A DNA stretch of 64,000 bases from Alphaproteobacteria bacterium (GTDB lineage Bacteria > Pseudomonadota > Alphaproteobacteria > Caulobacterales > Parvularculaceae): NCBI GenBank assembly GCA_016125455.1, contig WGLS01000027.1, forward strand, positions 9,954 to 73,953. The letters run 5' to 3'. The notes under the pieces are model-generated. The model was not told the DNA's origin, did no database searches, and saw only the letters and a list, made by a program, of their open reading frames with translations. A program made the translations under genes and the position numbers. Below, in pieces: positions 2,800 to 58,964 of the stretch (its first letter is position 1; each line of letters opens with the position of its first letter).

Positions 2800-2866
2800 C
2801 CCTGTCCCCGGACGCCAATCCGGGCCGGTCGGGAAACGTCCGGCGACCGCTGCGCCGCGCCCGATG

Positions 2867-3652
2867 CTAGCGGGCTCCGAGCCCGAACAGGGCGACCCGG
2901 ACGGTCAGCAACACGATCCCCAGGTCCATGAGTGGCCCATTATTCTTAAGATAAAAGAGATCAAAGCGATGCTTTTCGACTGCATCTTCTATGGAAGCGC
3001 CATACTGGTGCTTGACCTGCGCCCAGCCCGTGATTCCCGGTTTCACGCTGTGGCGAAGGTCATAGTGCGGGATCGCTTCGCGCAGAAGACCGACAAACTC
3101 CGGACGCTCCGGGCGCGGCCCAACAAAGCTCATGTCGCCGGCGAGGACGTTAAAGGCCTGCGGGATTTCATCAATCCGGAAGTGCCTGATCAACCGCCCG
3201 ATCCGCGTGACGCGGTCGTCGTTGACCGCCGCCCATCGCGCGCCGCCGGCTTCGGCATCCTGTCGCATCGACCGAAACTTCACGATCCGGAACACCCGGC
3301 CGCCGGCGCCGACCCGTTCTTGTCGGTAGAAAACCGGACCGGCGGATTCGAGCGGAACAAGGATGGCGACAACCGCCAGCAATGGCGCCGACGCCAGCAA
3401 AAGCAACGACGCAAGCATGATGTCGAAGAAGCGTTTGGCCATCCGGAAGGCCGGGCTTGACGCCCTGGCAAGTCCGGCGCTCAGGTCGGCCGGCGCGAAT
3501 GCGGCGAGGTCAATCCGGTCCGACTGCGGCGGCGAAAGCCACCGCCCGCCCCGCGAACCGCCGCGGCGACCTGCGGGCTGGAGCAGCCCATAGGTAACGG
3601 CGCCGAACAGCGCGGCCGCGCCGCCAACAGCCGTGGGCAACATGACTTCCAT
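2867..3652 (-). CDS. Bacterial sugar transferase (polyprenyl-phosphate hexose-1-phosphate transferase, ExoY/WbaP C-terminal type)
   Basis: KRFFDIMLASLLLLASAPLLAVVAILV...GPVFYRQERVGAGGRVFRIVKFRSM...DDRVTRIGRLIRHFRIDEIPQAFNVLAGDMSFVGPRPERPEFV is the hallmark motif set. GGGGGA SD lies upstream of the ATG at 3652. Confidence 0.9.
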   Translation of the reverse strand: MEVMLPTAVGGAAALFGAVTYGLLQPAGRRGGSRGGRWLSPPQSDRIDLAAFAPADLSAGLARASSPAFRMAKRFFDIMLASLLLLASAPLLAVVAILVPLESAGPVFYRQERVGAGGRVFRIVKFRSMRQDAEAGGARWAAVNDDRVTRIGRLIRHFRIDEIPQAFNVLAGDMSFVGPRPERPEFVGLLREAIPHYDLRHSVKPGITGWAQVKHQYGASIEDAVEKHRFDLFYLKNNGPLMDLGIVLLTVRVALFGLGAR

Positions 3653-3777
3653 TCCGGTCCCCCAAACTCACCGTCGCGCGCGGCGTGTCCCGCACTTGCG
3701 ATGTCCCGCACTGGCGATCCTCCGGCACGAGCGAGCAAGAAGCGCGCCGCTCTCGGGAAAGGCGAATGCGAGACACG

Positions 3778-3801
3778 AATGATTAATTCATCTTAATCAT
3801 T
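3778..3801. promoter_or_regulatory. Inverted repeat AATGATTAA-N6-TTAATCATT in an AT-rich island of the divergent EPS intergenic region; candidate regulator binding site
   Basis: Perfect 9-bp arms read directly from the sequence (3778-3786 and 3793-3801). Local sequence gaatgattaattcatcttaatcatttcgatgaaaaaaatatgg is strikingly A/T-rich in a G+C-rich genome. Confidence 0.35.
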
Positions 3802-3910
3802 TCGATGAAAAAAATATGGAGCGTCAGCAGCGATCGCGGGAAAAGTGAGCCATGGATGCAACAAATGCCCGTCTGACGCACCTTCCTAACGGGATTGCAA
3901 CCAGGGATTG

Positions 3911-3925
3911 GCAAGATAGCTGCCA
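3911..3925 (-). promoter_or_regulatory. Candidate sigma-54 (-24/-12) promoter, TGGCAG-N5-TTGC, reading toward the sugar-transferase/TPR/export genes
   Basis: Minus strand reads GATTGGCAGCTATCTTGCCAA, with GG and GC spaced as in the TGGCAC-N5-TTGCW consensus. The site is part of an 8-bp palindrome (GATTGGCA-N7-TGCCAATC, 3906-3928), so it could instead be a dimeric regulator site. Confidence 0.3.
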
Positions 3926-4045
3926 ATCGGGTTGCTGGCCGGGCGGACGGAAACCGCGATTTAACGGCGGATTAAACCGGGGCGGCGATCCTCGATCCTC
4001 GGCGCGCGACGTCACCGGCGAGCGAGACTCAAAAGAACGGGCGCG

Positions 4046-6292: not shown

Positions 6293-6320
6293 TTCGAAGG
6301 GCGTCATTAAGGAGACGCCC

Positions 6321-7082
6321 ATGGCCGCCGCAGAAATCGCCCGCATCGTTTTCGCGCTGTCCACCGTATTGCTGATGATCAGCATCGGAGCCTATGCGGC
6401 GAAGAAGCTTGGACTTGCCCAAGGCGGGCCACTCGCCCGCCGCAAGCGCCTCTCCCTGGTCGAAACGCTGCCCATCGATCAGAAGCGCCGCGCCGCGATC
6501 ATCTCGTGCGACGGGCGCGAGCACCTCGTCGTCATCAATCCGAACAGCGTGACGGTCGTTGCGCGCGACGTCTCGTCGCCGGATGCGCCCGGATCAGCGA
6601 CGTCAAAGCCTGACGCGTCAGGATCGGCAAACTCGACAGCGCCGCGCGCCGCGTCATCCGCAGCGGCCGCGCCAGAGCCCGAGACCGCAGCCGACGCAGA
6701 TGTCGAAGCTGATCTGACCTGGCCAGTCAAGCGCCCGACCGCAGCGCAGGAGTCGACCAGCGCCGTTGGCGGCGCGTTTTCGACCGTCTACAAATTATCG
6801 GCGATTCCGATGCAAACGCCGCAATCCCGCCCGGCGCAATCGCTCAATCCCGCACAGGCCCCCGCACAGGCCCCCGCACAGGCCCCCGCACAGGCCAATG
6901 CGTCGGCCGCCAATCCATTCGTCCGGGCGCGGCCTTCCGTCCCGGCGCCAGCGCCCTCGACGGAGAAACCCGTCGCCCAGCAAGACAGGCCGACCTCAGC
7001 CGCCGCCCAGGCTGGGCGACCCATGGAAACCCTGTTGAAAGCGCGCGAGGCGTTTCTCGCGGCGTACCGCAAAGTCGCCTAG
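6321..7082 (+). CDS. FliO-like single-pass membrane protein with long Ala/Pro/Ser-rich tail
   Basis: AAGGAG SD lies 7 nt upstream of the ATG. TM segment IVFALSTVLLMISIGAYAA is followed by RKRLSLVETLPIDQKRRAAIISCDGREHLVVINPNSVTVV. This matches the alphaproteobacterial FliO pattern (RL-x-V-x...RRRL-x-LV-x-D..EHL...). Confidence 0.5.
   Translation: MAAAEIARIVFALSTVLLMISIGAYAAKKLGLAQGGPLARRKRLSLVETLPIDQKRRAAIISCDGREHLVVINPNSVTVVARDVSSPDAPGSATSKPDASGSANSTAPRAASSAAAAPEPETAADADVEADLTWPVKRPTAAQESTSAVGGAFSTVYKLSAIPMQTPQSRPAQSLNPAQAPAQAPAQAPAQANASAANPFVRARPSVPAPAPSTEKPVAQQDRPTSAAAQAGRPMETLLKAREAFLAAYRKVA
6851..6896 (+). repeat. 12-bp tandem repeat CGCACAGGCCCC, about 3.8 copies, in frame (AQAP repeats)
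   Basis: Read directly: cgcacaggcccc cgcacaggcccc cgcacaggcccc cgcacaggcc. It lies inside the FliO-like CDS. Confidence 0.9.
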
Positions 7083-7184
7083 AACATTCCCGGGCGCGTC
7101 CCGGTTACGCGTTGGGATCCGCGGCCGCCAAAGGATCCCCAGCAAGTTCGCGGGTCAGGTTGAGTCGTTGAAATCGAACGCGCT

Positions 7185-7640
7185 CTAGCTCGACCTGGCG
7201 GCTTTTCGCCTGACTGTTCGGCGCCTGACTATTGGGCGCTTGACGGCCTTTTGCGCCGAAGTCGCCGGCGCCTTCGTGTTCTTTCCGCTTACTGATTTCT
7301 TCTTCGGTTTCGGACCACGGGTCGCGGCGGCAAGGGCGAGGCCCGTCCAGCGTCGCAACGCTTCGGCATCGTCAAGAATGTCGTCCGGCGGGGCGTAGTA
7401 ATTCATGACGCCCTTCTCGCCGTCTTTTGTTTCGTAGGTGAAGGGCGGCAGGCCCGCCGCGAGGAATGCGCTGCGCGTCTCCTCGTCAGTCTTGAACCAG
7501 AGGTCGTCGTCGCCGATAATCGCAAAAATCCGGCCGTCGCAGTATACGCCGGCGCCGCCGAACATCCGCCGGACCGTGATCTCTCCGAACGGCGCGAAGA
7601 GGTCCTTAACGAAGTCGATATAGCCGGCGGAGACCGTCAC
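7185..7640 (-). CDS. TfoX/Sxy N-terminal-domain protein with Lys/Arg-rich tail
   Basis: RRMFGGAGVYCDGRIFAIIGDDDLWFKTDEE is the TfoX_N signature. The GTG start lies 7 nt after the sufA stop codon on the same strand. Confidence 0.75.
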   Translation of the reverse strand: MTVSAGYIDFVKDLFAPFGEITVRRMFGGAGVYCDGRIFAIIGDDDLWFKTDEETRSAFLAAGLPPFTYETKDGEKGVMNYYAPPDDILDDAEALRRWTGLALAAATRGPKPKKKSVSGKNTKAPATSAQKAVKRPIVRRRTVRRKAARSS

Positions 7641-7647
7641 CCGGCCC

Positions 7648-8013
7648 CTATGCGTCCGCCGCCGCCGGGACGATCGTCACGCTTTCGCCGCAGCCGCAGG
7701 CGTCGGTCTGGTTCGGGTTGTTGAACACGAACCGCTGCGACAGCTTCTCGGTGACGAAATCGATCTGCGTCCCAAGAAGAAAGAGGATCGCTTTCGGATC
7801 GATCAGCACCTTGACGCCGTTCTCCTCTACGACCTCGTCCAGGGGCGCGGCTTCGGTCGCGTACTCCATCGCGTATTCCATGCCGGCGCAGCCGCCATTC
7901 TTCACGCCGATCCTGACGCCGATGTAACCGGCCTCCGCATCGGACATGATCTCCTGCATGCGGGCCGCGGCGGCGTCGGTGAGAGTCACTACTTTCGGTC
8001 TTGGTCTCGGCAT
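7648..8013 (-). CDS. sufA: Fe-S cluster insertion/carrier protein (HesB/IscA/SufA family)
   Basis: GVKNGGCAGMEY...NPNQTDACGCGESV has the three conserved Cys. Start trimmed to the ATG at 8013. Confidence 0.9.
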   Translation of the reverse strand: MPRPRPKVVTLTDAAAARMQEIMSDAEAGYIGVRIGVKNGGCAGMEYAMEYATEAAPLDEVVEENGVKVLIDPKAILFLLGTQIDFVTEKLSQRFVFNNPNQTDACGCGESVTIVPAAADA

Positions 8014-8026
8014 AGCCAAACAGCCT

Positions 8027-8443
8027 CTACTCGCCTTTCACTTCCGCCCACGGATCATAGCTCCCGAAATTCCAGAGATGGCCTTCGGGGTCTATGCAGC
8101 CGAACGACCGCCCGCCATGGGGCGGGCTTTCGGGCCCGTAGGCGATTTTCGCGTCGGCGGCCGTCGCCCGATCGGCGAGGCCGTCGACATCGTCGACGAT
8201 GATATAGGCGCTCTGCGTCGTCCCGCCGAGGGCCATCGGCGTCCTCTGCAGGACGCCGAAACCATCGTCCCGCGCCGAGCCTAGCATGATCATCACCGGG
8301 CCAAGCGTCAGCTGCGCGTGCCTGACGCCGCCGTCGCCGTCGTCGACGACGAGATGCGGCTCGAACCCGAAGGCTTCGCCGAGCCAGCGGATCATCGCCG
8401 GCGCGTCTTCGTAGGTCATGGTGGGGATGATCCTGCCGCCCAT
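8027..8443 (-). CDS. VOC (glyoxalase/bleomycin-resistance) family protein
   Basis: IIPTMTYEDAPAMIRWLGEAFGFE...GCIDPEGHLWNFGSYDPW is typical of the VOC/PhnB-like fold. The ATG at 8443 overlaps the stop of the upstream DUF59 gene (TGATG). Confidence 0.8.
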   Translation of the reverse strand: MGGRIIPTMTYEDAPAMIRWLGEAFGFEPHLVVDDGDGGVRHAQLTLGPVMIMLGSARDDGFGVLQRTPMALGGTTQSAYIIVDDVDGLADRATAADAKIAYGPESPPHGGRSFGCIDPEGHLWNFGSYDPWAEVKGE

Positions 8444-8997
8444 CACATCCACCCTAGTTCGAGTTTCGCTTCATCGCTCATGCGGTCCGGCGTCCAGGGC
8501 GGCTCGAACACCATGTTCACCTTCACGTCGTCGACGCCGTCGACGCCGCGCACTGCGCCCTCCACCCAGCCGGGCATTTCGCCAGCGACGGGACAGCCGG
8601 GCGCCGTCAGGGTCATGTCGACAGTGAGCAGGCGGTCGTCTGAAAGATCGACCTTGTAGATCAGCCCGAGCTCATAAATATCGACCGGAATTTCCGGGTC
8701 ATAAACTGACTTCAGGCCTTTCACGACATCTGCGGTGATGCGGTCGAGTTCGGCCTGCGGGATCGCGCCTTCGTCCGTCTTTGCAGATGCATCAGCGCCG
8801 CCGTCAGCCGCTTCTTGGGCCGCGTGCGAGACAGGCGCGGCCGCGTCATCAAGCGCAGGAGACGTTAACGCGCCGGTCGCCAGGCCGTTTGCGCCGGACG
8901 GCGGCGTTGCAGCGGCGGCGTCGAGGCGCGCGGGGGCTCGCTCCGTTCGTCCGAGATCGATTACGTCACGCACTTTTTCCATGAACCGTTCCAGCAT
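8443..8997 (-). CDS. SUF-system Fe-S assembly protein, DUF59/MIP18 (SufT-like), with Ala-rich N-terminal extension
   Basis: VYDPEIPVDIYELGLIYKV...DMTLTAPGCPVAGEMP...VNMVFEPPWTPDRMSDEAK. Start trimmed to the ATG at 8997, just after the sufS stop. Confidence 0.8.
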   Translation of the reverse strand: MLERFMEKVRDVIDLGRTERAPARLDAAAATPPSGANGLATGALTSPALDDAAAPVSHAAQEAADGGADASAKTDEGAIPQAELDRITADVVKGLKSVYDPEIPVDIYELGLIYKVDLSDDRLLTVDMTLTAPGCPVAGEMPGWVEGAVRGVDGVDDVKVNMVFEPPWTPDRMSDEAKLELGWM

Positions 8998-9001
8998 CCT
9001 G

Positions 9002-10249
9002 TCACCCGAGAAGATCGTGGGTCTTTTGCAGTCCTTCAACCAGCGCAGCGACGTCGTCTTCGCTGTTGTAGGCGCCGAACGACGCCCGACACGTCGCCGT
9101 CACGCCAAGTCGCTTCATCAGGGGCTGGGCGCAATGGTGACCAGCCCGGATTGCAACGCCCGCGCGATCGACGATTGATGAAACGTCATGGGGGTGCGCG
9201 CCGGCGACATTGAAGCAGATTATTGGGGCCTTGTTCGCTGCACGGCCATAGATCGTCACGAAGTCGAGAGCGCCAAGCTCGACCAGAGCTTTCTCCGCCA
9301 GGATCGCCTCATGGGCAGCGATCGCTTCAACGCCGACGTTCATCATCCACTCAACCGCTGCGCCGAAACCGATCGCCTCGACAATCGGCGGCGTGCCGGC
9401 TTCGAACCGGTGCGGCGGATCATTGTACGTTACCCTGTCCTTTTCGACGATGTCGATCATCTCGCCGCCGCCGCGAAAAGGCGGCATGGCCGCGAGGGCG
9501 TCACTCTTGCCGTAGAGCGCGCCGACCCCGGAGGGGCCATAGAGCTTGTGCGCCGTCAAAACGTAAAAATCGGCGTCAATCGCCTGCACGTCGATCTTGC
9601 CGTGCACGCCTGCCTGGCAGCCGTCAAACAGGATTTTCGCGCCGTGCGCATGGGCGATTCGGGCAAGTTCCCTTGCGTCCGTTGGCGCGCCCATGACGTT
9701 CGACATGTGCGTGACGGCGGCGAGCTTCGTGCGCGGCGAAAACGCCGCTTCAAACGCATCCGGGTCAATGAGGCCGTCATCCGTGGCGTCAATCCACCTC
9801 AGGACGACACCCATCCGTTCACGGAGAATATGCCAGGGCACGATATTTGAATGGTGTTCCATCACCGACAGCACAATCTCGTCGCCCGGACCAATGCCGG
9901 CGGCGCCAAGCGAATAGGCGACAAGGTTGAACGCGTCGGTGCCGCCGGACGTGAAGACAATCTCGTCCGGGCTTGGCGCATTAACGAACCGCGCAACGGA
10001 CCGGCGCGCCTCTTCGAACGCCGCCGTCGCCTCGTTCGACAGGCAATGCAGCCCACGGTGCACATTTGCATAGGATCGCGTCATCGCGTCCGTCATGCGG
10101 TCGATCACGGCGCGGGGTTTCTGCGCGGACGCCGCATTGTCCAGATAGACAAGCGGCTTGCCGTAAACCCGCCGCCGCAGGATCGGAAACTGTTCCCTGA
10201 TCGCGTCCACATCGTACGCTGGCGAAGCATTCATTGCAGCCGCGTTCAT
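9002..10249 (-). CDS. sufS: Cysteine desulfurase SufS (class V aminotransferase, group II)
   Basis: YLDNAASAQKP...ANVHRGLH...TAHKLYGPSGVGALYGK...RAGHHCAQPL. The ATG at 10249 overlaps the sufD stop (ATGA). Confidence 0.9.
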   Translation of the reverse strand: MNAAAMNASPAYDVDAIREQFPILRRRVYGKPLVYLDNAASAQKPRAVIDRMTDAMTRSYANVHRGLHCLSNEATAAFEEARRSVARFVNAPSPDEIVFTSGGTDAFNLVAYSLGAAGIGPGDEIVLSVMEHHSNIVPWHILRERMGVVLRWIDATDDGLIDPDAFEAAFSPRTKLAAVTHMSNVMGAPTDARELARIAHAHGAKILFDGCQAGVHGKIDVQAIDADFYVLTAHKLYGPSGVGALYGKSDALAAMPPFRGGGEMIDIVEKDRVTYNDPPHRFEAGTPPIVEAIGFGAAVEWMMNVGVEAIAAHEAILAEKALVELGALDFVTIYGRAANKAPIICFNVAGAHPHDVSSIVDRAGVAIRAGHHCAQPLMKRLGVTATCRASFGAYNSEDDVAALVEGLQKTHDLLG

Positions 10250-11466
10250 GCCGTCCTCTCGCGAAGCCACTCGCCGACGAGCTCCGCCGCCGCCGGCCGG
10301 GCGGCCGCGTCCATATCGCCGATCAATTCCCCAACAAACGCCTCAATCAACAGCGCCCTCGCCGCCCCCTCGTCGAGGCCGCGCTGGCGCAGATAGAACA
10401 GCGCGTCGTCGTCAAGCGCGCCCGATGTCGATCCGTGAGCGCATTGAACGTCATCGGCGTAGATTTCCAGCTCAGGTTTGTGATTCGCCTGCGCTCGATC
10501 AGACAACAGAAGCGCATTCGCCTGCATTTCCGCGTCAGTTTTCTGTGCGCTTCGACCGACAAGAAACTTGCCCTGGAACACGGCGCGACCGTTGCCGTCG
10601 ACGACGCCCTTGTGCCGCTGGCGCGTTATGGCGCGCGCCTCGTCATGCGCGACGTGGCTCGTAAAGTCGGCGTGCCTGTCGCGATCGACCAACGCGACGG
10701 AATCGATGCGCACCCTTGCGTCCTCATCAACCAGCCAGGGAACAGTCTCGTGTCGCGCAAACCTCCCGCCCAACGACACCGACGACTGCTCGAATGCGCC
10801 GCCGACGCCAATGATCGCCCCGAAACTGCTGTGCAGCACGACCGACTGCTCAGTCGACTGCAACATCGTCCGCGCAATCGACGCGTTCTTGCCTGTTCGC
10901 GCAATCGCCGCATGGGAAACAAACGGCGCGCGCCCCTCGAAGGTCTCGATGACATTCAGGGTCGCGCAATTCCCGACCCGCATTGCAATGGACACAAAGA
11001 CGTCCTCGCGGCTGTCAAATATGTGCCGCAACCAGACAGCCCCGGCCGCGCCGTCGATCATTTCCACACGGATCTGTCGAACCGCCGCAGCGGTGTTGAG
11101 GTCGACAAGGCCCGAAAACCGGTCCCGCCAGTCGCATGGGTCGAGCGTATCATCCCACTCGTCCACTTCGACGACGCCAAGCGCCGCCGCAGCCTGCGCA
11201 TCCGCAATCCGGCCATTCACGATATTGACGCTCGGCGCGCCGATCTGGTCGAAGGCCGCTGAGCGCCCGGACGAAGCGGCGCCATTCGCCGCGCGCAGCG
11301 CCGCCGGCAGGTCGGACCATCGCCAACCCTCCACTCGACGATGCGGCGGGCCAACCTTCGAAAATCGCGCGAATGCCGCGCGTTTTTCATCGTTCGCCGG
11401 CAGGCTCTCAGCCGCCGGACGAAACCGCTCCACCAGATCATCGGCTATTTTTTGGTACACGGACAT
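10246..11466 (-). CDS. sufD: Fe-S cluster assembly protein SufD
   Basis: Sits between sufC and sufS. C-terminal ELEIYADDVQCAHGSTSGALDDDALFYLRQRGLDEGAARALLIEAF is the SufB/D signature. Confidence 0.85.
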   Translation of the reverse strand: MSVYQKIADDLVERFRPAAESLPANDEKRAAFARFSKVGPPHRRVEGWRWSDLPAALRAANGAASSGRSAAFDQIGAPSVNIVNGRIADAQAAAALGVVEVDEWDDTLDPCDWRDRFSGLVDLNTAAAVRQIRVEMIDGAAGAVWLRHIFDSREDVFVSIAMRVGNCATLNVIETFEGRAPFVSHAAIARTGKNASIARTMLQSTEQSVVLHSSFGAIIGVGGAFEQSSVSLGGRFARHETVPWLVDEDARVRIDSVALVDRDRHADFTSHVAHDEARAITRQRHKGVVDGNGRAVFQGKFLVGRSAQKTDAEMQANALLLSDRAQANHKPELEIYADDVQCAHGSTSGALDDDALFYLRQRGLDEGAARALLIEAFVGELIGDMDAAARPAAAELVGEWLRERTA

Positions 11467-52837: not shown

Positions 52838-55303
52838 GTGTTCGGCATCAGCGGCCCCATCAGACGGCTTATCGGCCTCGTCGCAATCTTTCTTGCCTTT
52901 GTGGCGTCCGGCGTCGCGTCGTTCCAGGTCCTGGGCGGCAGTTTCGGCTCGCCGGCCTTTGACGCCTATAAGGTTCTCCAACTTTTCGTGTTGAGCGGCG
53001 ACTGGGTCTTTGGACCGAACTCGAACTGGTTTGTGCGGCGACAGGCGTTCATTGCGCCCGTCTTCACGGTCATCGGGATCATCGAGATCTTCACGGCCCA
53101 GTTCTTTTTTCGAATCTGGCAGGCCTCGAAGCTCGCGCGAATGGACAATCACGCCGTCATCGCCGGCCTGACGCGCGAAACGATGTTCCTTCTCGCGTCC
53201 CTGCGGCACGCGAAGGAACGGGTGGACGTGGCGATTGTCGACGCCCGTTTCGACGATGACATGAGGGCGATGGCGAGACGACTTGGCGCCGTGACTATTG
53301 AAGGCGACGCCGCGTCGCCCGCGGCGCTAAAGGTCGCCCGCATCGACCGGGCGCAGATTGCGATTTCATTTCTGCCCGAAGCGGTCGACAGCCTTCAGTT
53401 CGTGCTCTCCGCCAACAGCCTTATTGAGGACAGCCGAAAGGCTGGCGCGCCTCGGAACCCGGGCGGCGACGCGCGCAGCGTTGATCTCTGGGTCCGGTTG
53501 CAGGACGCGGGCCTTGGCAGCCGGCTCGGCACCTATTTCAAGTTCGCCGGACTGTCCGCCGCCGCGCATCCGCGATTCTTCAGCATTGACGAGATCGCCG
53601 CCCGCAGGCTGATCCGCGCGCACCCGCCGGACCTTTACGCCGACGCGCTCGGCCAGACACGGGTTCACCTGGTCCTGTTCGGCCACAACGCACTGTCAAT
53701 CCAGGTCATCGCGGAGTGCCTTCGCCAGACGACCGTGGCCGGAGACGCTAACGTGACGGTCCTGACAGCCGACCCTGAAGTCGCCGAACGCGAGCTGCGG
53801 GCTATCTTTCCTTCGATCGACGACATGGTGAACCTTGAGGTCCGCCTGCTGACAGTTCATGCGAGCGGCATATCGCAGGCGGACTATCTTTCGCTGCCGA
53901 CCGACGCGTCCATGAACGTGATCTGCTTCGAAAAGCCCGAAGCCTCCGTGAACGCGGCCCTGTCGCTTCGGCGAATGCTGCTTGTGCCTCCTGACATTGG
54001 CGATGCAACGGTCGAACGGCGCACCAATGCGCCAATCCTCGTCCGCCTTTCGAATACGCGCGGGATTGGCGAACTGCTTCGCTCGAACGTCGACAAGAAA
54101 ACCCAGCGCGGCGCGGGCGCAAGCGACGCCGAGAGCGAAATTCCCGACGGCATATTTGCGTTTGGCGCAATAGAAGACCTGCTGACCGGCGATGCCGAAG
54201 ACCTGTTCGTGCCGACGCTGATCGATCCGATGCGCGAACGGCTCGCCCGCGCGCTGCACGAATCCTATGTCGAGAACCGCAGCGCGAATGACGCCGCAGC
54301 GGCCGGCGTCCGGACTGCGCCGTCGTGGGAAGTTCTCTCCCAGGATTTCCGGGAATCAAGTCGGCAGGCCGCGGATCATATCTGGGCGAAGGCGCGCGCT
54401 CTTCGCCTGAGGCTTGTCGACGGCGTCGCCGGCGCGTCGAGCCTGAACCTGTCAGATGAGGAAAATCAGAGGCTGGCCGAGCTGGAACACAATCGCTGGG
54501 TGAATGAACGGCTGCTCAATGGCTGGTCGAGAGGGGCGAAAAGAGTTGACGCCGCAAGAAGGCACAATCTCCTGCGACCGTGGTCGGAACTATCCGCAAG
54601 CGAACGAATGGTCGATGAGCGCCTTGCCGGACGGCTTGAAGCGACCGTACGCTCCGTCGGCAAGACGCTGCAGCGCGAGCTTGTTGTCGGCGTTGTCGGA
54701 CATCGGCCGACGCCGGGACGCGAGTTCGACGAGCGCCACGTGGCGCTGACCATCAGGGCGAAGCTCGAAAAACTGGTTCGCGATCACCCCGATCGGGCGG
54801 TCGTGCTTGTCACCTGCCTTGCTGAAGGCGCGGACACCATCGCCGCGGAAGTCGCGATCGGTCTCGGCATTCCCTACTGGGTGCCATTGCCGATGCCGTA
54901 CGAGGCCTACAGTCAGGATTTCATGGCGGGGCGGACGGTCAGCGACGCCGATGGGGGCGCTGCGCTGAGACGCTTCCGGCGCCTCGTTGCATTGAGTGAA
55001 CGGTACCTAGAGCTGCCGCTGAAATTCGGCGACCTTACTGAAATCAGCCTGTCCCAGGGCGACTATGTCTCGCCGAGGGCGCGCGACCATCAGTACGCCC
55101 TCGCGGGCGCCTACATCGTCGAAAGATCGGACGTCGTGCTGGCGGTCTGGGACGGACGCCCGAGCCAGGGCGTTGGCGGCACGGGCGACGTTGTTGCCTG
55201 GCGGGCCGCCGGGGAGGCGCCGCGGGAATTCGCGACGCCGGCGGCGTTTCGCATGCGTCCGGCGATCACGCCGGCCGTCATTATACGGCCGACCGCGGAC
55301 TAA
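52838..55303 (+). CDS. Multidomain membrane protein: 2-helix membrane module, two Rossmann/RCK(TrkA_N)-like modules, RyR-like repeats and a C-terminal SLOG/LOG-like domain
   Basis: 821-aa ORF with GTG start. Residues 8-95 have helices LIGLVAIFLAFVASGVASF and FIAPVFTVIGIIEIFTAQFFF. Residues ~105-180 and ~275-380 are Rossmann-like with degenerate Gly loops (AVIAGLTRE, LVLFGHNAL). Residues ~463-600 are RyR-like (LARALHESYV, ELEHNRWVNERLLNGWSRG...RRHNLLRPWSELSASERMVDE). Residues ~614-790 are SLOG-like (VVGVVGHRP, LAEGADTIAAEVAIGLGIPYWVPLP, VLAVWDGRPSQGVGGTGDVV). Domain calls are by eye. Confidence 0.7.
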   Translation: MFGISGPIRRLIGLVAIFLAFVASGVASFQVLGGSFGSPAFDAYKVLQLFVLSGDWVFGPNSNWFVRRQAFIAPVFTVIGIIEIFTAQFFFRIWQASKLARMDNHAVIAGLTRETMFLLASLRHAKERVDVAIVDARFDDDMRAMARRLGAVTIEGDAASPAALKVARIDRAQIAISFLPEAVDSLQFVLSANSLIEDSRKAGAPRNPGGDARSVDLWVRLQDAGLGSRLGTYFKFAGLSAAAHPRFFSIDEIAARRLIRAHPPDLYADALGQTRVHLVLFGHNALSIQVIAECLRQTTVAGDANVTVLTADPEVAERELRAIFPSIDDMVNLEVRLLTVHASGISQADYLSLPTDASMNVICFEKPEASVNAALSLRRMLLVPPDIGDATVERRTNAPILVRLSNTRGIGELLRSNVDKKTQRGAGASDAESEIPDGIFAFGAIEDLLTGDAEDLFVPTLIDPMRERLARALHESYVENRSANDAAAAGVRTAPSWEVLSQDFRESSRQAADHIWAKARALRLRLVDGVAGASSLNLSDEENQRLAELEHNRWVNERLLNGWSRGAKRVDAARRHNLLRPWSELSASERMVDERLAGRLEATVRSVGKTLQRELVVGVVGHRPTPGREFDERHVALTIRAKLEKLVRDHPDRAVVLVTCLAEGADTIAAEVAIGLGIPYWVPLPMPYEAYSQDFMAGRTVSDADGGAALRRFRRLVALSERYLELPLKFGDLTEISLSQGDYVSPRARDHQYALAGAYIVERSDVVLAVWDGRPSQGVGGTGDVVAWRAAGEAPREFATPAAFRMRPAITPAVIIRPTAD

Positions 55304-55348: not shown

Positions 55349-56836
55349 TCAGCCGAGTTCGCGCACAATGCGGAAGCCTGTGTCGTAGTCGTGCGCTTTG
55401 GCGCCGGCGGGCTTTCGGTGGGCCGCTCTGGTCCGCCATGCGCCGCCGTTGAATGCGCCGCCCTTCAGGACCCGTTGGGCGCATGCGCCAGCAACCGGAC
55501 GTCCGTCGCCGGGATTGCCCGCATGATTCGCTCGCCAGCAATCTTCCGTCCACTCCCAGGTATTGCCGTGCACGTCATAAAGACCGAACCCATTCGCCTT
55601 GTAGCTGCCGACCGGCATCGTCTTGCCGGCGGACTTCTCCTTCGACGCGCCGGCGTAAGGGTACTGGCCATTGAAATTCGCCTGGCTGGTTGAAATCGCA
55701 TTCCCGAACCAGAAAGGCGTCTTTGCGCCAGCGCGGGCGGCGTACTCCCATTCGGCTTCCGTCGGCAGGCGGTAGCGCTTGCCGGTTTTGGCGGAGATCC
55801 ACGCGAGATAGGCCTGCGCGTCTTCATACGAAATGTTGATGGCCGGTCGCTTGCCGCCGCCCCAGCCCTGATTGTTCGGGTCGTAACCGTTGCAGCCGCC
55901 GTCCTTTCGGCACTTGGCCCAGTCGTCAAAGGTCACTTCGTAGCGACCGATCGCGAACGAATAGCCGATCTCCGTCGGCACCTGCGGGGTCTCGGCGACT
56001 TCGCGGCTGGCCTCATCGTCAGGCGCGCCGAGTAGAAAGCTCCCCGGCGCGACAACAACGAGTTCCGGACATTCCTCGCAATCCTTGATGACATCGCCCG
56101 GGGCATAGCCCGACGCGGCCAGGCCGTCCGCGGCGTTCGCAACGATCTCGCCGCCTTTCGCCACAAGATCGCCTCCCTTGGCGAACAGATCCTTGCCAGC
56201 CGGCGTGGCGAAAGCGACGTACGCCCCGCCGCCAATCAGCGCCGCAAGCGCGAGCACGGCGACCGCCGGGCCGAGGGCGCCTGCCCCCTTCCCGCCACTG
56301 CGGCCGGATGGCGCCGCGCTTGCCGCCGCCGTCGCGTTCTTCCCAGCGCCAGTCGCGCTCGACTTCGCGACCTTCACCTTTGATGGCGCCTTTGATGGCG
56401 CCTTTGACGGCCCCCTGGCGTGAGCAGATGCGCCCGCGCCCCTCGCGGGCGCAACAAGCCGCCGGATTTCATCGACAACCCGCCGCCATTCCGGCGCATT
56501 CCTGTCGCCGCGCCAGCTGGTCAGATCCGCCGTCTGAACCCGCTTGAATCCGCGAGGCAATTCGATCGGATCAATCATGACGGGTATCAGGCGCCCCGAC
56601 TGCATCCCGTCGTCGGCTTCCTCCTGCACCCAGTTTGATCGCACCGAGGACATCGACCATACGACGAGGACGCAGTCCGATTCCTTCAGCCGTGCGTCAA
56701 TCACTTCCGAAAACGTGCTGCCGGGCGGAATTTCGGTATCCCACCAGACATTGAAACCTTCGCCCGCCAGCGCGGCGGCCATTTTCGACACGATATCGCG
56801 ATCGTTGCGCGAATAGCTGATGAAGATATCGGTCAC
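55349..56836 (-). CDS. TIR-domain protein fused through one TM helix to an FGE-sulfatase (SUMF1/EgtB/PvdO-type) domain
   Basis: 495-aa ORF with GTG start and GGGAGAG SD. Residues 1-125 are TIR-like (DIFISYSRNDRD, GFNVWWD, CVLVVWSMSSVRSNWVQEE). Residues 189-210 form a TM segment (PAVAVLALAALIGGGAYVAFA). Residues ~250-493 are FGE-like (YRLPTEAEWEYAARAG, GLYDVHGNTWEWTEDCW, RVLKGGAF). Confidence 0.85.
   Translation of the reverse strand: MTDIFISYSRNDRDIVSKMAAALAGEGFNVWWDTEIPPGSTFSEVIDARLKESDCVLVVWSMSSVRSNWVQEEADDGMQSGRLIPVMIDPIELPRGFKRVQTADLTSWRGDRNAPEWRRVVDEIRRLVAPARGAGASAHARGPSKAPSKAPSKVKVAKSSATGAGKNATAAASAAPSGRSGGKGAGALGPAVAVLALAALIGGGAYVAFATPAGKDLFAKGGDLVAKGGEIVANAADGLAASGYAPGDVIKDCEECPELVVVAPGSFLLGAPDDEASREVAETPQVPTEIGYSFAIGRYEVTFDDWAKCRKDGGCNGYDPNNQGWGGGKRPAINISYEDAQAYLAWISAKTGKRYRLPTEAEWEYAARAGAKTPFWFGNAISTSQANFNGQYPYAGASKEKSAGKTMPVGSYKANGFGLYDVHGNTWEWTEDCWRANHAGNPGDGRPVAGACAQRVLKGGAFNGGAWRTRAAHRKPAGAKAHDYDTGFRIVRELG
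56377..56412. repeat. 12-bp tandem repeat CCTTTGATGGCG x3 (in frame; APSK repeats in the TIR-TM linker)
   Basis: Read directly: cctttgatggcg cctttgatggcg cctttgacggcc. Confidence 0.9.
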
Positions 56837-57056
56837 GTCTCTCTCCCACCCCGGATAGTCGAAACGCCAGTTATTTCCGAATATTAACCTTCTTCAAGCG
56901 AAATCGCCAGCGCCGCCGCAAGGCCGCCGCCGGAGACCACGGTCCGATTTGTTGAAGCCGGCAGTCGTCAGGAACGTCTGCGACGGGCGGGACCAAATTT
57001 TTGGAAGCTTGCATGACCGAGCCGGCCTGTCGTCGCGCGCACTGCGGCGTCGCACG

Positions 57057-57088
57057 AAAAAGGGCGCCGCTGGCCCGCAGCGGCGCCC
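57057..57088 (-). terminator. Rho-independent terminator (11-bp perfect stem, 5-nt loop, T5 tract)
   Basis: Minus strand reads GGGCGCCGCTG-CGGGC-CAGCGGCGCCC-TTTTTC. It lies about 20 nt downstream of the small ORF stop at 57110 and insulates the TIR gene from upstream transcription. Confidence 0.7.
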
Positions 57089-57109
57089 CTCTCAATTCAA
57101 TGTCAGCCT

Positions 57110-57247
57110 TCAGCCGACGAGGCTGGCATACCCGTAAACCGGCGCGGCGAAGGACAGGGCGATGCCCGTCAGTATCGTCAGTACGGGCATGACCCGTTGC
57201 GACAGGCCAATCGTCCGCTGGCTGAACAGTGAAAAATGCGATTGCAT
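57110..57247 (-). CDS. Small (45-aa) hydrophobic protein, unknown function
   Basis: MQSHFSLFSQRTIGLSQRVMPVLTILTGIALSFAAPVYGYASLVG. GGGAGAG SD lies 6 nt upstream of the ATG at 57247, a strong terminator follows, and there is one predicted TM helix. Confidence 0.45.
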   Translation of the reverse strand: MQSHFSLFSQRTIGLSQRVMPVLTILTGIALSFAAPVYGYASLVG

Positions 57248-57746
57248 GATATCTCTCCCAATCTCGTTACAATCATCATGTAGGCGCGCGCGACGACGAC
57301 AGGAGATGTGGCGAAACCGGACTGGCGATGGCGGGCAACCGTTCGTCGCATTTCGGCGCCCCCGGGGGCCGGCCACGACCAAGCGGCCTGCGCCGCCCGG
57401 GCTTGGAGACACAGCCCCCCGGAGAAAAGCAGCCACTTAACAGCGACTTGCATTACCCGCCGGCGGGCGTCGCTTTCACGGCGCGAACTGCCGAGGGCCG
57501 GAAGCTCAATGCCCATCGCCGCGGTCCTTGGCGGTCAATTTGTCCGGCGCTGAACGCCGGCGCCGGACGGCGTTCTCTGGTTGGGGCTTCTGGCGACGCG
57601 TGGCGCGGATGGCATTCCTCTTGGCCGCGCAAACGTCAGAGAAACTGCGCCTATCTCTTTCGAGCATGCCGGCGAGCTCTGAAGGGCGGCGGCGTCCTGT
57701 CCCACCGGCGGCGTAGGCCAAGCGACCTGCAAGGAGAATTTGAAAA

Positions 57747-57832
57747 TGGTGGAGGGGGGTGGATTCGAACCACCGTACGCCGAAGCGGGCAGATTTACAG
57801 TCTGCTGGATTTAACCACTCTCCCACCCCTCC
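57747..57832 (-). tRNA. tRNA-Tyr (anticodon GTA), long variable arm
   Basis: Reverse complement: GGAGGGGTGGGAGAGTGGTTAAATCCAGCAGACTGTAAATCTGCCCGCTTCGGCGTACGGTGGTTCGAATCCACCCCCCTCCACCA (86 nt). The cloverleaf folds by eye. Confidence 0.95.
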
Positions 57833-58070
57833 AAACCGGACGGTAGATGACAAGCCAGTCTGCTCGCCAAACCAACCGTGGACGACGAGCCATGAAAGGA
57901 CCGTCGCCAATGGGAGCGAGCCCTATAGCGACCCCGCTGCGGGCTCGCAACAGCATCCGCGGCGCGAACTTCCGAATTCTGCGCCAGTCAATCTCGCTGG
58001 GGACGGATGCTGCCAACTGGGCGTGAATTGTCCGTGCGCGCGACGCGAAGTCGCGCTAAAGCCAGCGGCG

Positions 58071-58964
58071 ATGGATCGAATGACCAAGTCCCAGGGCAAG
58101 CCAAGGAACGACGCGCGTGCGCGGCAGCCCGCCTCGACTGCCGCGCACGCGTCTCGCAAGCCAGCGGCGAGCGGCGGCGGCTACAAGCCTCAACGCAGCA
58201 AGCCGGCCGAAGACGAAAACGCGCCCGTCTGGATTTATGGTCGCCATGCCGTCGCGGCGGCGCTCGCAAACCCGCAGCGGCGCTTGATCCGCCTTCTGGC
58301 CACGAAGAATGCCGCCGACTGGCTCGTCACGCTTGGCGGCCCGGCCAAGGCCGCCATTGGCAAGGCAGAAGATGCGCGGCCCGAACATATCGACAAGGCG
58401 TTGCCGCCAGGCGCCGTCCATCAGGGACTTGCTACGCTCGTTGGGCCCCTGCCACGCGTGCGCCTGAAGGACGCCTGCGCGGACGCGACGCCGTCTCGGC
58501 CCGTGATCGTACTCGACCAGGTGACAGATCCTCAGAACATCGGCGCCATCATGCGGTCGGGCGCAGCGCTCGGCGCGTGCGCCATTGTCGTGCAGGACAG
58601 ACGCACCCCACCCCTTTCCGGCGCTCTGGCGAAGGCGGCAGCGGGCGCCGTCGAGCTTCTGCCCTGCGTCCGGGTCGTCAACATTGCGCGCTCGCTGGAG
58701 GCGCTGGGCGAGTTGGGATATTTCAGGGCGGCGCTTGCCGGCGAGGGCGCTGCGCCGATTGACGACCTGCCGAAGGACCGGCCGATCGCGCTGGTTCTCG
58801 GCGCAGAGGGGACCGGCCTCCGGCCGCTTGTCGCCGCAACGTGCGACGGACGGTTTCGCATTGAAATCGGATCGGCCATGGAAAGCCTGAATGTTTCGAC
58901 GGCAGCCGCAATCGCGCTTTACGAAGCGACCCGTCGCTCATCGGCAAACCGCATGGACGCTTAA
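58071..58964 (+). CDS. rlmB: 23S rRNA (guanosine-2'-O-)-methyltransferase RlmB (SpoU/TrmH family)
   Basis: IYGRHAVAAAL...VLDQVTDPQNIGAIMRSGAALG...LVLGAEGTGLR...ESLNVSTAAAIALYE. Start trimmed to the ATG at 58071 because the track ORF start overlaps tRNA-Tyr. Confidence 0.85.
   Translation: MDRMTKSQGKPRNDARARQPASTAAHASRKPAASGGGYKPQRSKPAEDENAPVWIYGRHAVAAALANPQRRLIRLLATKNAADWLVTLGGPAKAAIGKAEDARPEHIDKALPPGAVHQGLATLVGPLPRVRLKDACADATPSRPVIVLDQVTDPQNIGAIMRSGAALGACAIVVQDRRTPPLSGALAKAAAGAVELLPCVRVVNIARSLEALGELGYFRAALAGEGAAPIDDLPKDRPIALVLGAEGTGLRPLVAATCDGRFRIEIGSAMESLNVSTAAAIALYEATRRSSANRMDA

Follow-up and report, generated by a model that had tools for sequence, protein, structure and literature searches.

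A TIR-TM-FGE protein and its convergent, channel-like RyR-SLOG partner: a candidate two-gene TIR signalling module in an alphaproteobacterium

Introduction

The closest described relatives of the locus considered here are the Thoeris systems, of which type I pairs the TIR protein ThsB with ThsA, a SIR2-SLOG effector whose SLOG domain binds 3'cADPR. The YpsA clade of SLOG domains includes further cADPR sensors (PMC9503650), while phage RyR-domain proteins have been shown to bind or cleave 2'cADPR and 3'cADPR by means of residues H75, W78, H100 and D117 (PMC13232231). A Thoeris type X with ion-channel effectors has also been reported, together with candidate "SLOG and 4TM" effectors (Yirmiya et al., bioRxiv 10.64898/2025.12.03.692087). 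Bacterial TIRs that are fused to sensors are often NAD+-depleting effectors.

Here, we describe a pair of convergent genes from a 64,000-nucleotide stretch of alphaproteobacterial DNA (the window). One encodes a TIR domain joined through a transmembrane (TM) helix to an FGE-fold domain, and the other a membrane protein with a channel-like pore and RCK, RyR and SLOG domains. Our proposal, for which we judge the chances to be about even, is that the two form a Thoeris-like membrane signalling module. A literature search found nothing on TIR joined to FGE-sulfatase (PF13676 plus PF03781), or on the combination of SLOG, RyR and TIR.

The TIR-TM-FGE protein

The gene and the parts of its product are as follows.

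55349..56836, minus strand: TIR-linker-TM-FGE gene, 495 aa, GTG start (ORF list, Pfam matches and homologue N-termini)
56462..56836, minus strand: TIR domain, aa 1-125, predicted cytoplasmic, with catalytic Glu E73 (Pfam TIR_2)
56279..56461, minus strand: low-complexity Ala/Gly/Ser/Lys/Pro linker, aa 126-186 (composition; unconserved in the alignment)
56207..56278, minus strand: single TM helix, aa 187-210 (hydropathy peak and charge bias)
55352..56107, minus strand: PvdO-like FGE-fold domain, aa 244-495, predicted periplasmic (match to PvdO 5hha in the PDB)

The N-termini of homologues open at the same MTDIFISYSR as the protein read from the GTG start, and a GGAG-type Shine-Dalgarno sequence lies 5' of that codon. 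From the N-terminus, the TIR domain is followed by a Lys/Ala/Ser/Pro linker, one TM helix and the FGE-fold domain, an architecture that had been predicted from the DNA alone and that is borne out by the Pfam matches to TIR_2 and FGE-sulfatase and by the one hydrophobic segment. The FGE-sulfatase match (PF03781) spans aa 256-492 with an E value of 3e-47 and 161.7 bits, covering profile positions 2-255 of 255, and the two peptide blocks originally quoted from this domain, RLPTEAEWEYAARAG and HGNTWEWTEDCW, are both found in the ORF translation. Homologues number in the thousands, and dozens have the TIR plus FGE architecture in common with it, so the features of the protein are no product of chance.

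The linker is, as had been claimed, of the Lys/Ala/Ser/Pro kind, with a composition rich in A, G, S, K and P. The exact threefold 12-bp repeat once described within it did not survive measurement: Tandem Repeats Finder (TRF) counts 2.9 copies, with a match of 95%, at positions 56377-56411, with a perfectly periodic stretch of 31 nt, encoding PSKA-PSKA-PSKV. A functional significance for this repeat was considered and rejected, given that the linker is unconserved among homologues.

The TM helix is the sole hydrophobic segment of the protein, with a Kyte-Doolittle maximum of 2.18, and a hydrophobic segment occupies the same place in all 26 aligned homologues. A single helix had been placed at 56207-56272; its presence there is confirmed, and its extent is now revised to 56207-56278. 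The protein has no signal peptide. The 30 residues that precede the helix include four Lys/Arg and no acidic ones, as against three and four, respectively, after it, and the FGE domain contains six cysteines versus one in the TIR domain. Together with the periplasmic location of the PvdO relative, these features predict that the TIR domain lies inside and the FGE domain outside the cytoplasm. The claim of a cytoplasmic TIR coupled to an extracytoplasmic FGE domain is, in this manner, supported at the level of sequence-based topology prediction.

Pfam TIR_2 (PF13676) matches aa 4-110 with an E value of 1e-26 and 94.3 bits, well above the gathering cutoff of 28. Residue E73 is invariant in the 26 aligned homologues, and it aligns with the glutamate of the W-x-x-x-E motif in structures of AbTir, PdTIR and the 7uxr chain. 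By these sequence features, the TIR domain is of the enzymatic class with the catalytic glutamate kept, and NAD+ cleavage or cyclase activity is predicted for it.

A PvdO-like domain with a degenerate FGE site

The closest solved relative of the C-terminal domain is PvdO (PDB 5hha), which matches across the entire FGE domain with an E value of 7e-43. At the positions of Cys336 and Cys341 of human FGE, the protein carries Gly and Ala, and none of the 26 aligned homologues has a cysteine at either catalytic position. An alignment of the catalytic Cys pair was among the checks proposed with the original prediction, and it returned a degenerate site. A second such check, a survey of the genes neighbouring TIR-FGE homologues, found no sulfatase genes in the flanks of the window or in the roughly 12 homologous loci inspected. 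The outcomes that would have counted against the earlier view of the domain as a sensor, rather than a maturation enzyme, were not seen: the FGE site is degenerate, sulfatase neighbours are absent from the loci inspected and the predicted topology is TIR-in and FGE-out.

We give very little credence to the reading in which the C-terminal domain works in the periplasm as an enzyme, be it an FGE serving sulfatases or a PvdO-type oxidase, with the TIR domain as an accessory. It does draw on the strong Pfam FGE-sulfatase match, on PvdO being the best match among both solved structures and NCBIfam models, and on public annotations that name the homologues "SUMF1/EgtB/PvdO family nonheme iron enzyme". 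Against it stand the missing pair of catalytic cysteines here and in 26 of 26 homologues, an NCBIfam PvdO score (NF051459, an equivalog model) of 186.9 bits, far under the cutoff of 500, and the lack of sulfatase or pyoverdine genes in any locus examined. The part of this reading that concerns FGE activity is already largely refuted, and a true FGE or sulfatase-maturation role was rejected on the absence of the Cys pair and of nearby sulfatases. Orthology to PvdO was likewise rejected, on the sub-cutoff score and the lack of pyoverdine context.

The convergent partner

Directly 3' of the TIR-FGE gene, and on the opposite strand, lies a gene that was overlooked in the original prediction. Its parts are given below.

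52838..55303, plus strand: partner gene, encoding an 821-aa pore-RCK-RCK-RyR-SLOG membrane protein, a putative effector (conserved adjacency, AF2 model and fold matches)
52853..53140, plus strand: K-channel-like pore domain, with TM1 at aa 6-32, pore helix at 39-50 and TM2 at 64-101 (AF2 secondary structure)
52991-53005, plus strand: filter-like L52-S53-G54-D55-W56 (alignment to MthK)
53153..54046, plus strand: two Rossmann/RCK-like domains, aa 106-200 and about 215-403, resembling a gating ring (Pfam TrkA_N; Foldseek)
54227..54652, plus strand: helical RyR (R12-type) domain, with the Pfam match at aa 543-598 and residues H551, W554, H576 and D593 (Pfam RyR; profile)
54662..55237, plus strand: C-terminal YpsA-like SLOG domain, aa 609-800, with motifs GVVGHR, LAEGAD, QYALAGAY and VWDG..GGT (AF2; Foldseek)

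An exhaustive search at E<=1e-30 recovered 112 cluster representatives related to the partner, as against only seven relatives by a word-indexed protein search. The AF2 model (pLDDT 86, pTM 0.84) finds fold matches in GsuK, MthK, TrkA and Slo, of which GsuK, MthK and TrkA are the top Foldseek hits. PADLOC has no model for the protein, and Pfam finds no SIR2 match in it that would place it with the SIR2-SLOG type of ThsA.

Its N-terminal half follows the order TM1, pore helix, TM2 and then RCK, as seen by profile, AF2 topology and Foldseek. A family profile matches GsuK (1.7e-10) and MthK (1e-8) over the pore and RCK regions; a single-sequence PDB search with the N-terminus did not detect the channel homology. 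Opposite the TVGYG filter of MthK stands LSGDW, within a family consensus of x-G-D/E/S-W (the aligned ranges agree with the MthK match in the PDB). Such a filter would not be K+-selective, and the protein is best viewed as a homologue of tetrameric RCK-gated cation channels with putative channel activity. Foldseek matches to the RCK region include the TrkA ring, GsuK, CASTOR and the Slo gating rings. RCK1 possesses no clear GxGxxG motif, and only G110 and L111 are invariant within it.

The RyR domain passes the Pfam gathering score (PF02026; E value 9e-11, 42.3 bits versus 27.4) and is matched in 27 of 30 members of the partner family, and the partner profile matches RyR repeats at 1e-26 as well as an RyR protein of Bacteroides thetaiotaomicron. 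The spacing of H551, W554, H576 and D593 is identical to that of H75, W78, H100 and D117 in RyDEP, the correspondence having been mapped by motif spacing, and the same spacing recurs in the B. thetaiotaomicron protein. This H/W/H/D tetrad is intact in all members of the TIR-linked clade.

Pfam YAcAr matches the C-terminus at 20 bits, under its cutoff of 28.2, and across the 30 family members YAcAr is found in four and YpsA in one, all weakly. Assignment of the SLOG domain needed the structure model, since a profile of the domain found nothing significant in the PDB. The modelled domain (pLDDT 91.4) has YpsA 2nx2 as its top Foldseek match (E value 5.6e-6, TM 0.49/0.57), followed by ShosA, TM1055, DprA and MCP, with a weak match to TRPM2 (E value 0.065). 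On the strength of this model, the C-terminus is a Rossmannoid SLOG fold of the YpsA-like kind. The SLOG motifs have been lost from one of the TIR-linked partners, P0125.

Linkage between TIR proteins and the partner

In five of the five loci whose TIR-FGE protein has 51% identity or more (the window, P0002, P0004, P0005 and P0006), the partner gene adjoins that of TIR-FGE. In each, the two genes are convergent, and so do not form an operon, and are separated by -16 to +67 bp, while the flanks vary from Wzy_C/tRNA-Tyr to Metallophos/beta-lactamase, FixS/HemolysinCabind and TPS. Viewed from the partner, a TIR gene is the immediate neighbour in each of the five clusters with 45% identity or more. 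In two of these clusters, of 45-46% identity, the neighbour is instead a TIR-TM-WD40 gene, whose TIR is 44-46% identical to that of the window and which is encoded on the same strand as the partner with a gap of 62-67 bp. This exchange of the FGE sensor for WD40 implies that the linkage follows the TIR domain and not the FGE domain. Unrelated (TIR)x3-TM-FGE proteins also adjoin SLOG+4TM proteins, and their SLOG is homologous to the partner's C-terminus (E value 1e-40). The recurring arrangement, a TIR gene conserved beside a putative effector with signal-binding domain types, is that of Thoeris-type systems.

The linkage has its bounds. At about 30% identity, one partner homologue is separated by a single gene from TIR-TPR or TIR-only genes, and no TIR is found near the other 10 of 11 clusters; a TIR next door is thus no strict requirement of the channel family. 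Likewise, TIR-FGE proteins of 50% identity or less are encoded by standalone genes, and the family therefore needs no partner in cis. A scan of a genome collection with the TIR-FGE alignment found the partner in none of 80 loci, a figure of little use for linkage statistics: most of the matches are FGE-only proteins because both search patterns fall within the FGE domain, with only two loci (L005 and L008) matching essentially the whole protein and another two (L035 and L006) most of it.

Transcription and chromosomal setting

One further feature lies upstream of the TIR-FGE gene.

57057..57090, minus strand: strong intrinsic terminator 5' of the TIR-FGE gene (terminator scan; fold)

The terminator, originally placed at 57057-57088, is a strong one: the region 57050-57100 on the minus strand folds into a 16-bp stem followed by U5, with a dG of -30.5 kcal/mol and a z of -4.2 (none of 200 shuffles equalled it). 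It insulates the TIR-FGE gene from tRNA-Tyr and a small ORF. A promoter of the gene's own within 56837-57056 is plausible; a sigma-70 scan of that interval found none.

The window shows no defence-island or mobile-element context, and the neighbouring genes are housekeeping ones both here and in most of the homologous loci. Hints of defence among the loci are limited to TerB genes in three, one weak SLATT_1 match and one adjacent toxin-antitoxin (TA) pair. Both SLOG and SLATT were reportedly defined by Burroughs and colleagues in 2015. The GC content of the gene pair, 0.64, is that of the window, and recent horizontal acquisition was rejected on these grounds. Viral contigs scanned with the partner and with the TIR, and plasmids searched with the partner, gave no matches save for one weak TIR-only match on viral contig L142 (32% over residues 3-63), and there is consequently no evidence of carriage by phages or plasmids.

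A proposed mechanism and its alternatives

The pair looks like an undescribed Thoeris-like system because the TIR-linked partner carries RyR and SLOG domains, types known for ADP-ribose signals. In the proposed mechanism, the periplasmic PvdO-like domain, non-catalytic as an FGE, would bind a cue on the envelope side, and the single TM helix would relay this binding to the TIR domain in the cytoplasm, probably by way of clustering. The TIR domain would then turn NAD+ into an ADP-ribose-derived signal, e.g., a cADPR isomer, which the partner could bind with its R12-type RyR domain, its YpsA-like SLOG domain or both. Opening of the partner channel would allow ion flux and depolarisation, leading to growth arrest or abortive infection in what may be a defence role. 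The RyR domain is presumably the receptor, although it could alternatively serve as a built-in module for clearing the signal.

Owing to the conserved convergent partner, the TIR-FGE protein is now read not as a self-contained sensor-effector but as the sensor side of a two-gene module of TIR signal and effector. The self-contained version, in which an outside ligand sets the TIR-TM-FGE protein to deplete NAD+ and the channel next to it has no part in this or simply senses a fall in NAD+ or a rise in ADPR through its RCK domains, strikes us as unlikely. Most TIR-FGE homologues (those of 50% identity or less) are standalone, which favours it, and NAD+ depletion is a common activity of sensor-fused TIRs; moreover, the RCK/KTN domains of GsuK and TrkA bind NAD+, ADP or ATP, and the matched structures include ADP-bound GsuK and ATP-gamma-S-bound TrkA. 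However, adjacency to the partner survives both changing flanks and the swap of FGE for WD40, the partner carries RyR and SLOG domains, two dedicated types for which (c)ADPR binding has precedent, and its RCK1 lacks a clear GxGxxG motif. A housekeeping role in envelope signalling, with a periplasmic PvdO-like sensor of a small molecule or of envelope state and a TIR messenger that tunes cation flux through the RCK channel, seems to us equally improbable. The chromosomal housekeeping context, the native GC content and the lack of mobile or defence neighbours would suit such a role, as would the synteny of related standalone genes in two genomes (Suv3-like helicase, the gene, rpmB), the many orphan channel homologues beside metabolic genes in marine bacteria, and the action of PvdO, by its NCBIfam name, on a periplasmic small molecule. 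Yet the cassette occurs in four different neighbourhoods with its sensors swapped among FGE, WD40 and TPR, as is typical of conflict systems; the characterised bacterial pairs of TIR signal and effector are all antiphage; and a TA module has inserted beside one homologue, with TerB genes near three loci.

Building on the two-gene module, a broader view is possible, though we hold it tentatively and doubt it more than the module itself. The pair may represent a complete bacterial axis from TIR through a cyclic ADP-ribose-type signal to an RyR/SLOG-gated cation channel, with a TIR-TM-FGE input in the style of Toll-like receptors. It would then be a prokaryotic counterpart, and possibly an evolutionary source of modules, for animal cADPR/RyR and ADPR/TRPM2 signalling, as well as the first bacterial TIR system to survey the envelope side. 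To our knowledge, the known bacterial TIR sensors, i.e., ThsB and its relatives, are cytoplasmic. If the broader view is correct, TIR immunity and signalling would extend to envelope-side cues, and bacteria would offer an analogue of the Toll-like-receptor topology. A 2026 preprint, in which phage RyR domains bind cADPR isomers, raises the same question for R12 of animal ryanodine receptors, and a small, TIR-tied bacterial RyR-domain channel would provide a tractable system in which to test the long-standing cADPR-RyR question.

Comparison with known systems

Neither PADLOC nor the published survey of Thoeris types includes the module. That survey covered defence-island-enriched TIRs only, and surveys of this kind may consequently miss chromosomally embedded TIR systems of environmental Alphaproteobacteria. 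With type I Thoeris, the pair shares a TIR protein with a catalytic glutamate beside a SLOG-bearing effector and, as proposed, the logic of sensor, NAD-derived signal and effector. It differs in a partner that has a channel-like pore, RCK and RyR rather than SIR2, in a membrane-anchored TIR protein with an extracytoplasmic domain, in convergent genes and in the lack of a defence island. For type X (ThsK), the paper and its supplements make no mention of RyR, TrkA or FGE; the TIRs in Table S1 of Yirmiya et al. are ThsB-like, unlike the TIR_2 domain here, and in contrast to type X and the "SLOG and 4TM" effectors, the channel, RyR and SLOG modules are here fused in one protein.

The individual parts have relatives of their own. 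PvdO resembles the FGE-fold domain over its whole length, including the DCxxCPE motif at the start, and both are without the FGE catalytic cysteines and are periplasmic (by prediction here), whereas the present domain scores below the NCBIfam equivalog cutoff, has no pyoverdine genes nearby and is joined via a TM helix to a TIR domain. RyDEP (PMC13232231) belongs to the same Pfam family, PF02026, as the partner's RyR domain and has the same H/W/H/D ligand-site residues by spacing, but is found in phages as a small, soluble enzyme or sponge directed against defence, in contrast to a domain within a host membrane channel. GsuK, MthK, Slo and CASTOR, which give the best profile and fold matches, have the same succession of TM1, pore helix and TM2 followed by tandem Rossmann/RCK domains; the partner departs from them in having LSGDW for TVGYG, additional RyR and SLOG domains and no canonical GxGxxG in RCK1.

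Among animal proteins, the ADPR-gated TRPM2, with its SLOG-like MHR1/2, and the cADPR-modulated ryanodine receptors, with R12, are likewise cation channels that combine SLOG- or RyR-type modules with a place downstream of NAD-consuming enzymes. Their TRP and RyR pores are unrelated to the 2TM K-channel pore, and the likeness is one of shared modules and not of orthology. Finally, Toll-like receptors join, as the TIR-FGE protein appears to, an extracellular domain for ligand binding to a TIR domain in the cytoplasm by means of one TM helix. This is an analogy only: the order is inverted here, with the TIR domain at the N-terminus in a type II topology, the fold of the sensor is FGE/C-type-lectin-like instead of LRR, and the TIR domain is predicted to be enzymatic, whereas that of Toll-like receptors is a scaffold.

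The TIR-FGE gene and its product

The proposed fusion of a TIR domain, through a single transmembrane (TM) helix, to an FGE-type domain is borne out by Pfam matches on either side of one hydrophobic segment, and both peptide blocks quoted in the original prediction are found in the protein. The features are as follows:

55349-56836, minus strand: TIR-FGE open reading frame (ORF), 495 aa, GTG start
aa 4-110: TIR_2 (Pfam, E 1e-26)
between the TIR and FGE domains: linker rich in Ala, Gly, Ser, Lys and Pro by composition
aa 187-210 (nt 56207-56278, minus strand): single hydrophobic segment between the TIR and FGE domains
aa 256-492: FGE-sulfatase (Pfam, E 3e-47, full profile length)

Good support for the start comes from the N-terminus MTDIFISYSR, shared by homologues in the alignment, and from a GGAG-type ribosome-binding site upstream of the GTG. 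The linker's 12-bp repeat, originally described as three exact copies, amounts to 2.9 copies at a 95% match (56377-56411), and it is given no functional weight because the linker carrying it varies among homologues. The strong terminator reported upstream was recovered (16-bp stem plus U5; dG -30.5 kcal/mol, z -4.2), and a separate promoter in the ~220-bp upstream gap is plausible; a consensus scan of that gap found none.

Between this terminator and tRNA-Tyr (57747-57832) lies a small ORF whose C-terminus is hydrophobic and which has no Pfam match (57110-57436, minus strand); if there is a gene here at all, it is probably far shorter than the 108 aa listed. A listed 401-aa ORF (57759-58964, plus strand) overlaps the tRNA-Tyr of the opposite strand, and since its SpoU methylase domains begin only at ~aa 158, its true start is probably well downstream of the listed one.

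This architecture is widespread in public sequence data, with PF13676 and PF03781 occurring together in dozens of the best 120 matches. Where a source organism is given, most are metagenome-assembled genomes (MAGs) of Alphaproteobacteria from marine or soil settings (Hyphomonadaceae, Parvularculaceae, Hyphococcus, Marinicaulis), with some Gammaproteobacteria. These matches carry the generic annotation 'SUMF1/EgtB/PvdO family nonheme iron enzyme', and a literature search found no paper discussing a TIR-FGE protein.

An alignment of 26 full-length homologues (37-64% identity) shows no variation at Glu73 of the S-x-x-S-x-W-V-x-x-E motif, and this residue aligns with the corresponding Glu of the solved NADase TIRs AbTir, PdTIR and 7uxr; from this conservation, the TIR is predicted to be catalytically competent. 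The FGE catalytic site is degenerate: Cys336 and Cys341 of human FGE, the pair singled out for checking, align to Gly and Ala, and none of the 26 homologues has cysteines at these positions. Among solved structures the domain is closest to periplasmic PvdO (5hha, E 7e-43, whole domain), and true FGEs match far less well (~1e-18). Orthology to PvdO was rejected because the NCBIfam PvdO model scores the protein at 187 bits against a cutoff of 500. In conflict systems, FGS (FGE-fold) domains have been described as modules at the C-terminus that serve binding and have no enzymatic role (Kaur et al. 2020, PMC7159879).

A hydrophobic segment occupies the matching place in all 26 homologues, as well as in larger (TIR)x3-FGE proteins. 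The TIR is predicted to lie inside and the FGE domain outside, as originally proposed, on the basis of the lack of a signal peptide, the charge bias around the helix (+4/0 in the 30 residues before, +3/-4 after), the cysteine distribution (six in the FGE domain versus one in the TIR) and the periplasmic nearest relative.

A channel-like partner

The convergent neighbour encodes a pore-RCK-RCK-RyR-SLOG membrane protein, hereafter the partner, whose parts were placed with an AlphaFold2 model:

52838-55303, plus strand: partner gene, 821 aa, convergent, ending 45 bp from the TIR-FGE stop codon
aa 6-32: TM1
aa 39-50: pore helix
aa 64-101: TM2
C-terminal to TM2, in order: two Rossmann domains, a helical RyR domain, an alpha/beta domain

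Pfam gave TrkA_N and RyR matches and a sub-threshold YAcAr (SLOG) match, and the model, for which 30 homologues were used, has high confidence (pLDDT 86, pTM 0.84). Profile comparison aligns the family with the K+ channels GsuK (1.7e-10) and MthK (1e-8) over both pore and RCK; by fold, Foldseek ranks GsuK, the TrkA ring, full-length MthK, CASTOR and Slo channels highest. The TVGYG filter of MthK aligns to L52-S53-G54-D55-W56, the family consensus being x-G-D/E/S-W. Given these matches and the replaced filter, the partner looks like an RCK-gated tetrameric channel, one unlikely to be K+-selective.

Modelled alone (pLDDT 91), the C-terminal domain best matches B. subtilis YpsA (Foldseek, E 5.6e-6), followed by ShosA, TM1055, DprA and MCP, all of the SLOG superfamily; YpsA-clade SLOG domains include cADPR sensors of prokaryotic immune systems (PMC9503650). 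The RyR domain matches RyR repeats at 1e-26 by profile. Its H551, W554, H576 and D593 are spaced identically to H75, W78, H100 and D117 of the phage RyR-domain proteins RyDEP, residues conserved across PF02026 through which RyDEP bind or cleave 2'cADPR and 3'cADPR (2026 preprint, PMC13232231). This tetrad is intact in every TIR-linked partner homologue, and the SLOG signature motifs are lost in one of them (P0125); both RyR and SLOG therefore stay candidates for the signal receiver.

Conserved linkage with exchange of the sensor

The partner is convergently adjacent to the TIR-FGE gene in the window and beside the homologues P0002 (63% identity), P0004, P0005 and P0006, in a set comprising every homologue at least 51% identical with an examined contig; the outer flanks vary from locus to locus. 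In L001, the closest homologous locus, the two ORFs share their last 17 bp (11424-11440), so that no terminator could fit between them.

At 80% identity, the full-length homologues of the partner that come from metagenome and assembly loci fall into 16 clusters, and a TIR gene lies within -16 to +67 bp in all five clusters at least 45% identical to the window partner. Two of these five have TIR-TM-WD40 instead of TIR-FGE, encoded on the partner's strand and with a TIR 44-46% identical to that of the window; the linkage is conserved while the sensor is swapped. One ~30%-identical homologue has TIR-TPR or TIR-only genes one gene away. An independent case comes from low-GC contigs, where (TIR)x3-TM-FGE proteins adjoin SLOG+4TM proteins whose SLOG domain is homologous to the partner C-terminus (E 1e-40). 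These and related loci are:

L121, 1984-3741 and 4903-7776, both plus strand: SLOG+4TM / (TIR)x3-TM-FGE pair
L126, 5016-7733 and 7875-9623, both plus strand: TIR-TM-FGE / SLOG+4TM pair
L128, 1-2697 and 2841-4475, both plus strand: ~900-aa RyR protein and SLOG+TM neighbour
L127, 2302-5034, plus strand: ~900-aa RyR protein

The large L121 and L126 proteins (905-957 aa, GC 41-42%, metagenome contigs) consist of a TIR region, one TM helix and an FGE domain, with three TIR_2 stretches in the L121 protein, which the Pfam scan covered; their SLOG+4TM neighbours have 582-585 aa. In the ~900-aa protein of L127 and L128, a weak P-loop (AAA/STAND-like) region accompanies two RyR stretches (PF02026, E 5e-20); the next gene downstream encodes an N-terminal SLOG domain and TM helices, so that RyR and this SLOG clade co-occur in trans as well as fused. 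At L085, a 339-aa gene (2197-3213, plus strand) just upstream of a partner/TIR-WD40 pair has a weak match (E 0.019) to SLATT_1; SLATT is the SMODS/SLOG-associated 2TM effector domain.

Genomic setting

Standalone TIR-FGE genes, at most 50% identical, occur in housekeeping settings (P0008, P0011, P0021 and P0091, also L005 and L008). In two different MAGs (L134, region 4819-9542; L140, region 2735-7599), such genes, ~50% identical to the window protein, sit at the same syntenic position, flanked by rpmB and by the gene for a Suv3-like helicase, which suggests vertical inheritance and not island-like mobility. The L134 gene has a RelE/HTH toxin-antitoxin pair inserted right next to it. In three loci that otherwise differ, a TerB-domain gene is found within 2-4 kb of the TIR or partner gene (L085 1493-1972, L134 3955-4404, L140 1863-2318).

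In the partner clade at ~30% identity, 10 of 11 clusters have no TIR gene nearby, and the TIR-less members neighbour FAD oxidase, DbpA helicase, amidohydrolase and DsbA genes. At this level of identity there is a large marine clade of pore-RCK-RyR-SLOG proteins of about 770 aa (L093-L119, e.g. L097 7887-10196) with no TIR gene nearby and with housekeeping neighbours (FAD oxidase, DbpA helicase, DsbA); several members carry substitutions in the RyDEP-like tetrad. The window's flanks are housekeeping (MatE, PGM, Dus, Wzy_C, tRNA-Tyr, SpoU, GST, SDR), and the pair shares the GC content of the window. Scanned viral contigs held no relatives of either protein beyond one weak TIR-only match, and a plasmid search gave no match for the partner. 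Of the pair, PADLOC detects just the TIR part, and it lacks a model for the partner.

Proposed mechanism and alternatives

The best-supported reading, to which we give roughly an even chance, is that the two proteins form a Thoeris-like two-component module, possibly defensive. The PvdO-like domain, predicted to be periplasmic, would bind a cue, the TIR on the cytoplasmic side would convert NAD+ into an ADPR-derived signal, and this signal would open the channel-like partner by binding its RyR domain, its SLOG domain or both. The analysis establishes the identities of the domains, the lost FGE catalytic residues, a linkage that persists when the sensor is exchanged, and the ligand-site residues; topology, enzymology, signal identity, gating and a role in defence are inferred.

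It is conceivable, if unlikely, that the TIR-FGE protein is a self-contained, NAD+-depleting sensor-effector and its neighbour a bystander or a sensor of NAD levels; the standalone genes would fit this, and the recurrent adjacency would fit a shared module. A non-immune envelope-signalling pathway is about equally improbable; the housekeeping surroundings are consistent with it, and the exchange of sensor domains across differing neighbourhoods, typical of conflict systems, speaks against it. A periplasmic enzyme, suggested by the FGE fold, is very improbable beside the lost catalytic cysteines.

Comparison with known systems

The pair joins a membrane TIR built in the style of a Toll-like receptor to a putative channel that has RyR-R12 as well as SLOG modules, and it bears on the long-standing cADPR-RyR question. 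A survey of Thoeris types retained only TIR clusters enriched in defence islands, which may explain why the module is missing from it; its 'SLOG and 4TM' candidates did not protect E. coli (Yirmiya et al., bioRxiv 10.64898/2025.12.03.692087). The pair's proposed way of working is similar to that of Thoeris, but it is outside every described type, in a comparison that covered the effector of type I and the TIRs of type X: the type I effector has SIR2, whereas the partner lacks it, and the TIRs of type X are of another kind than the window TIR.
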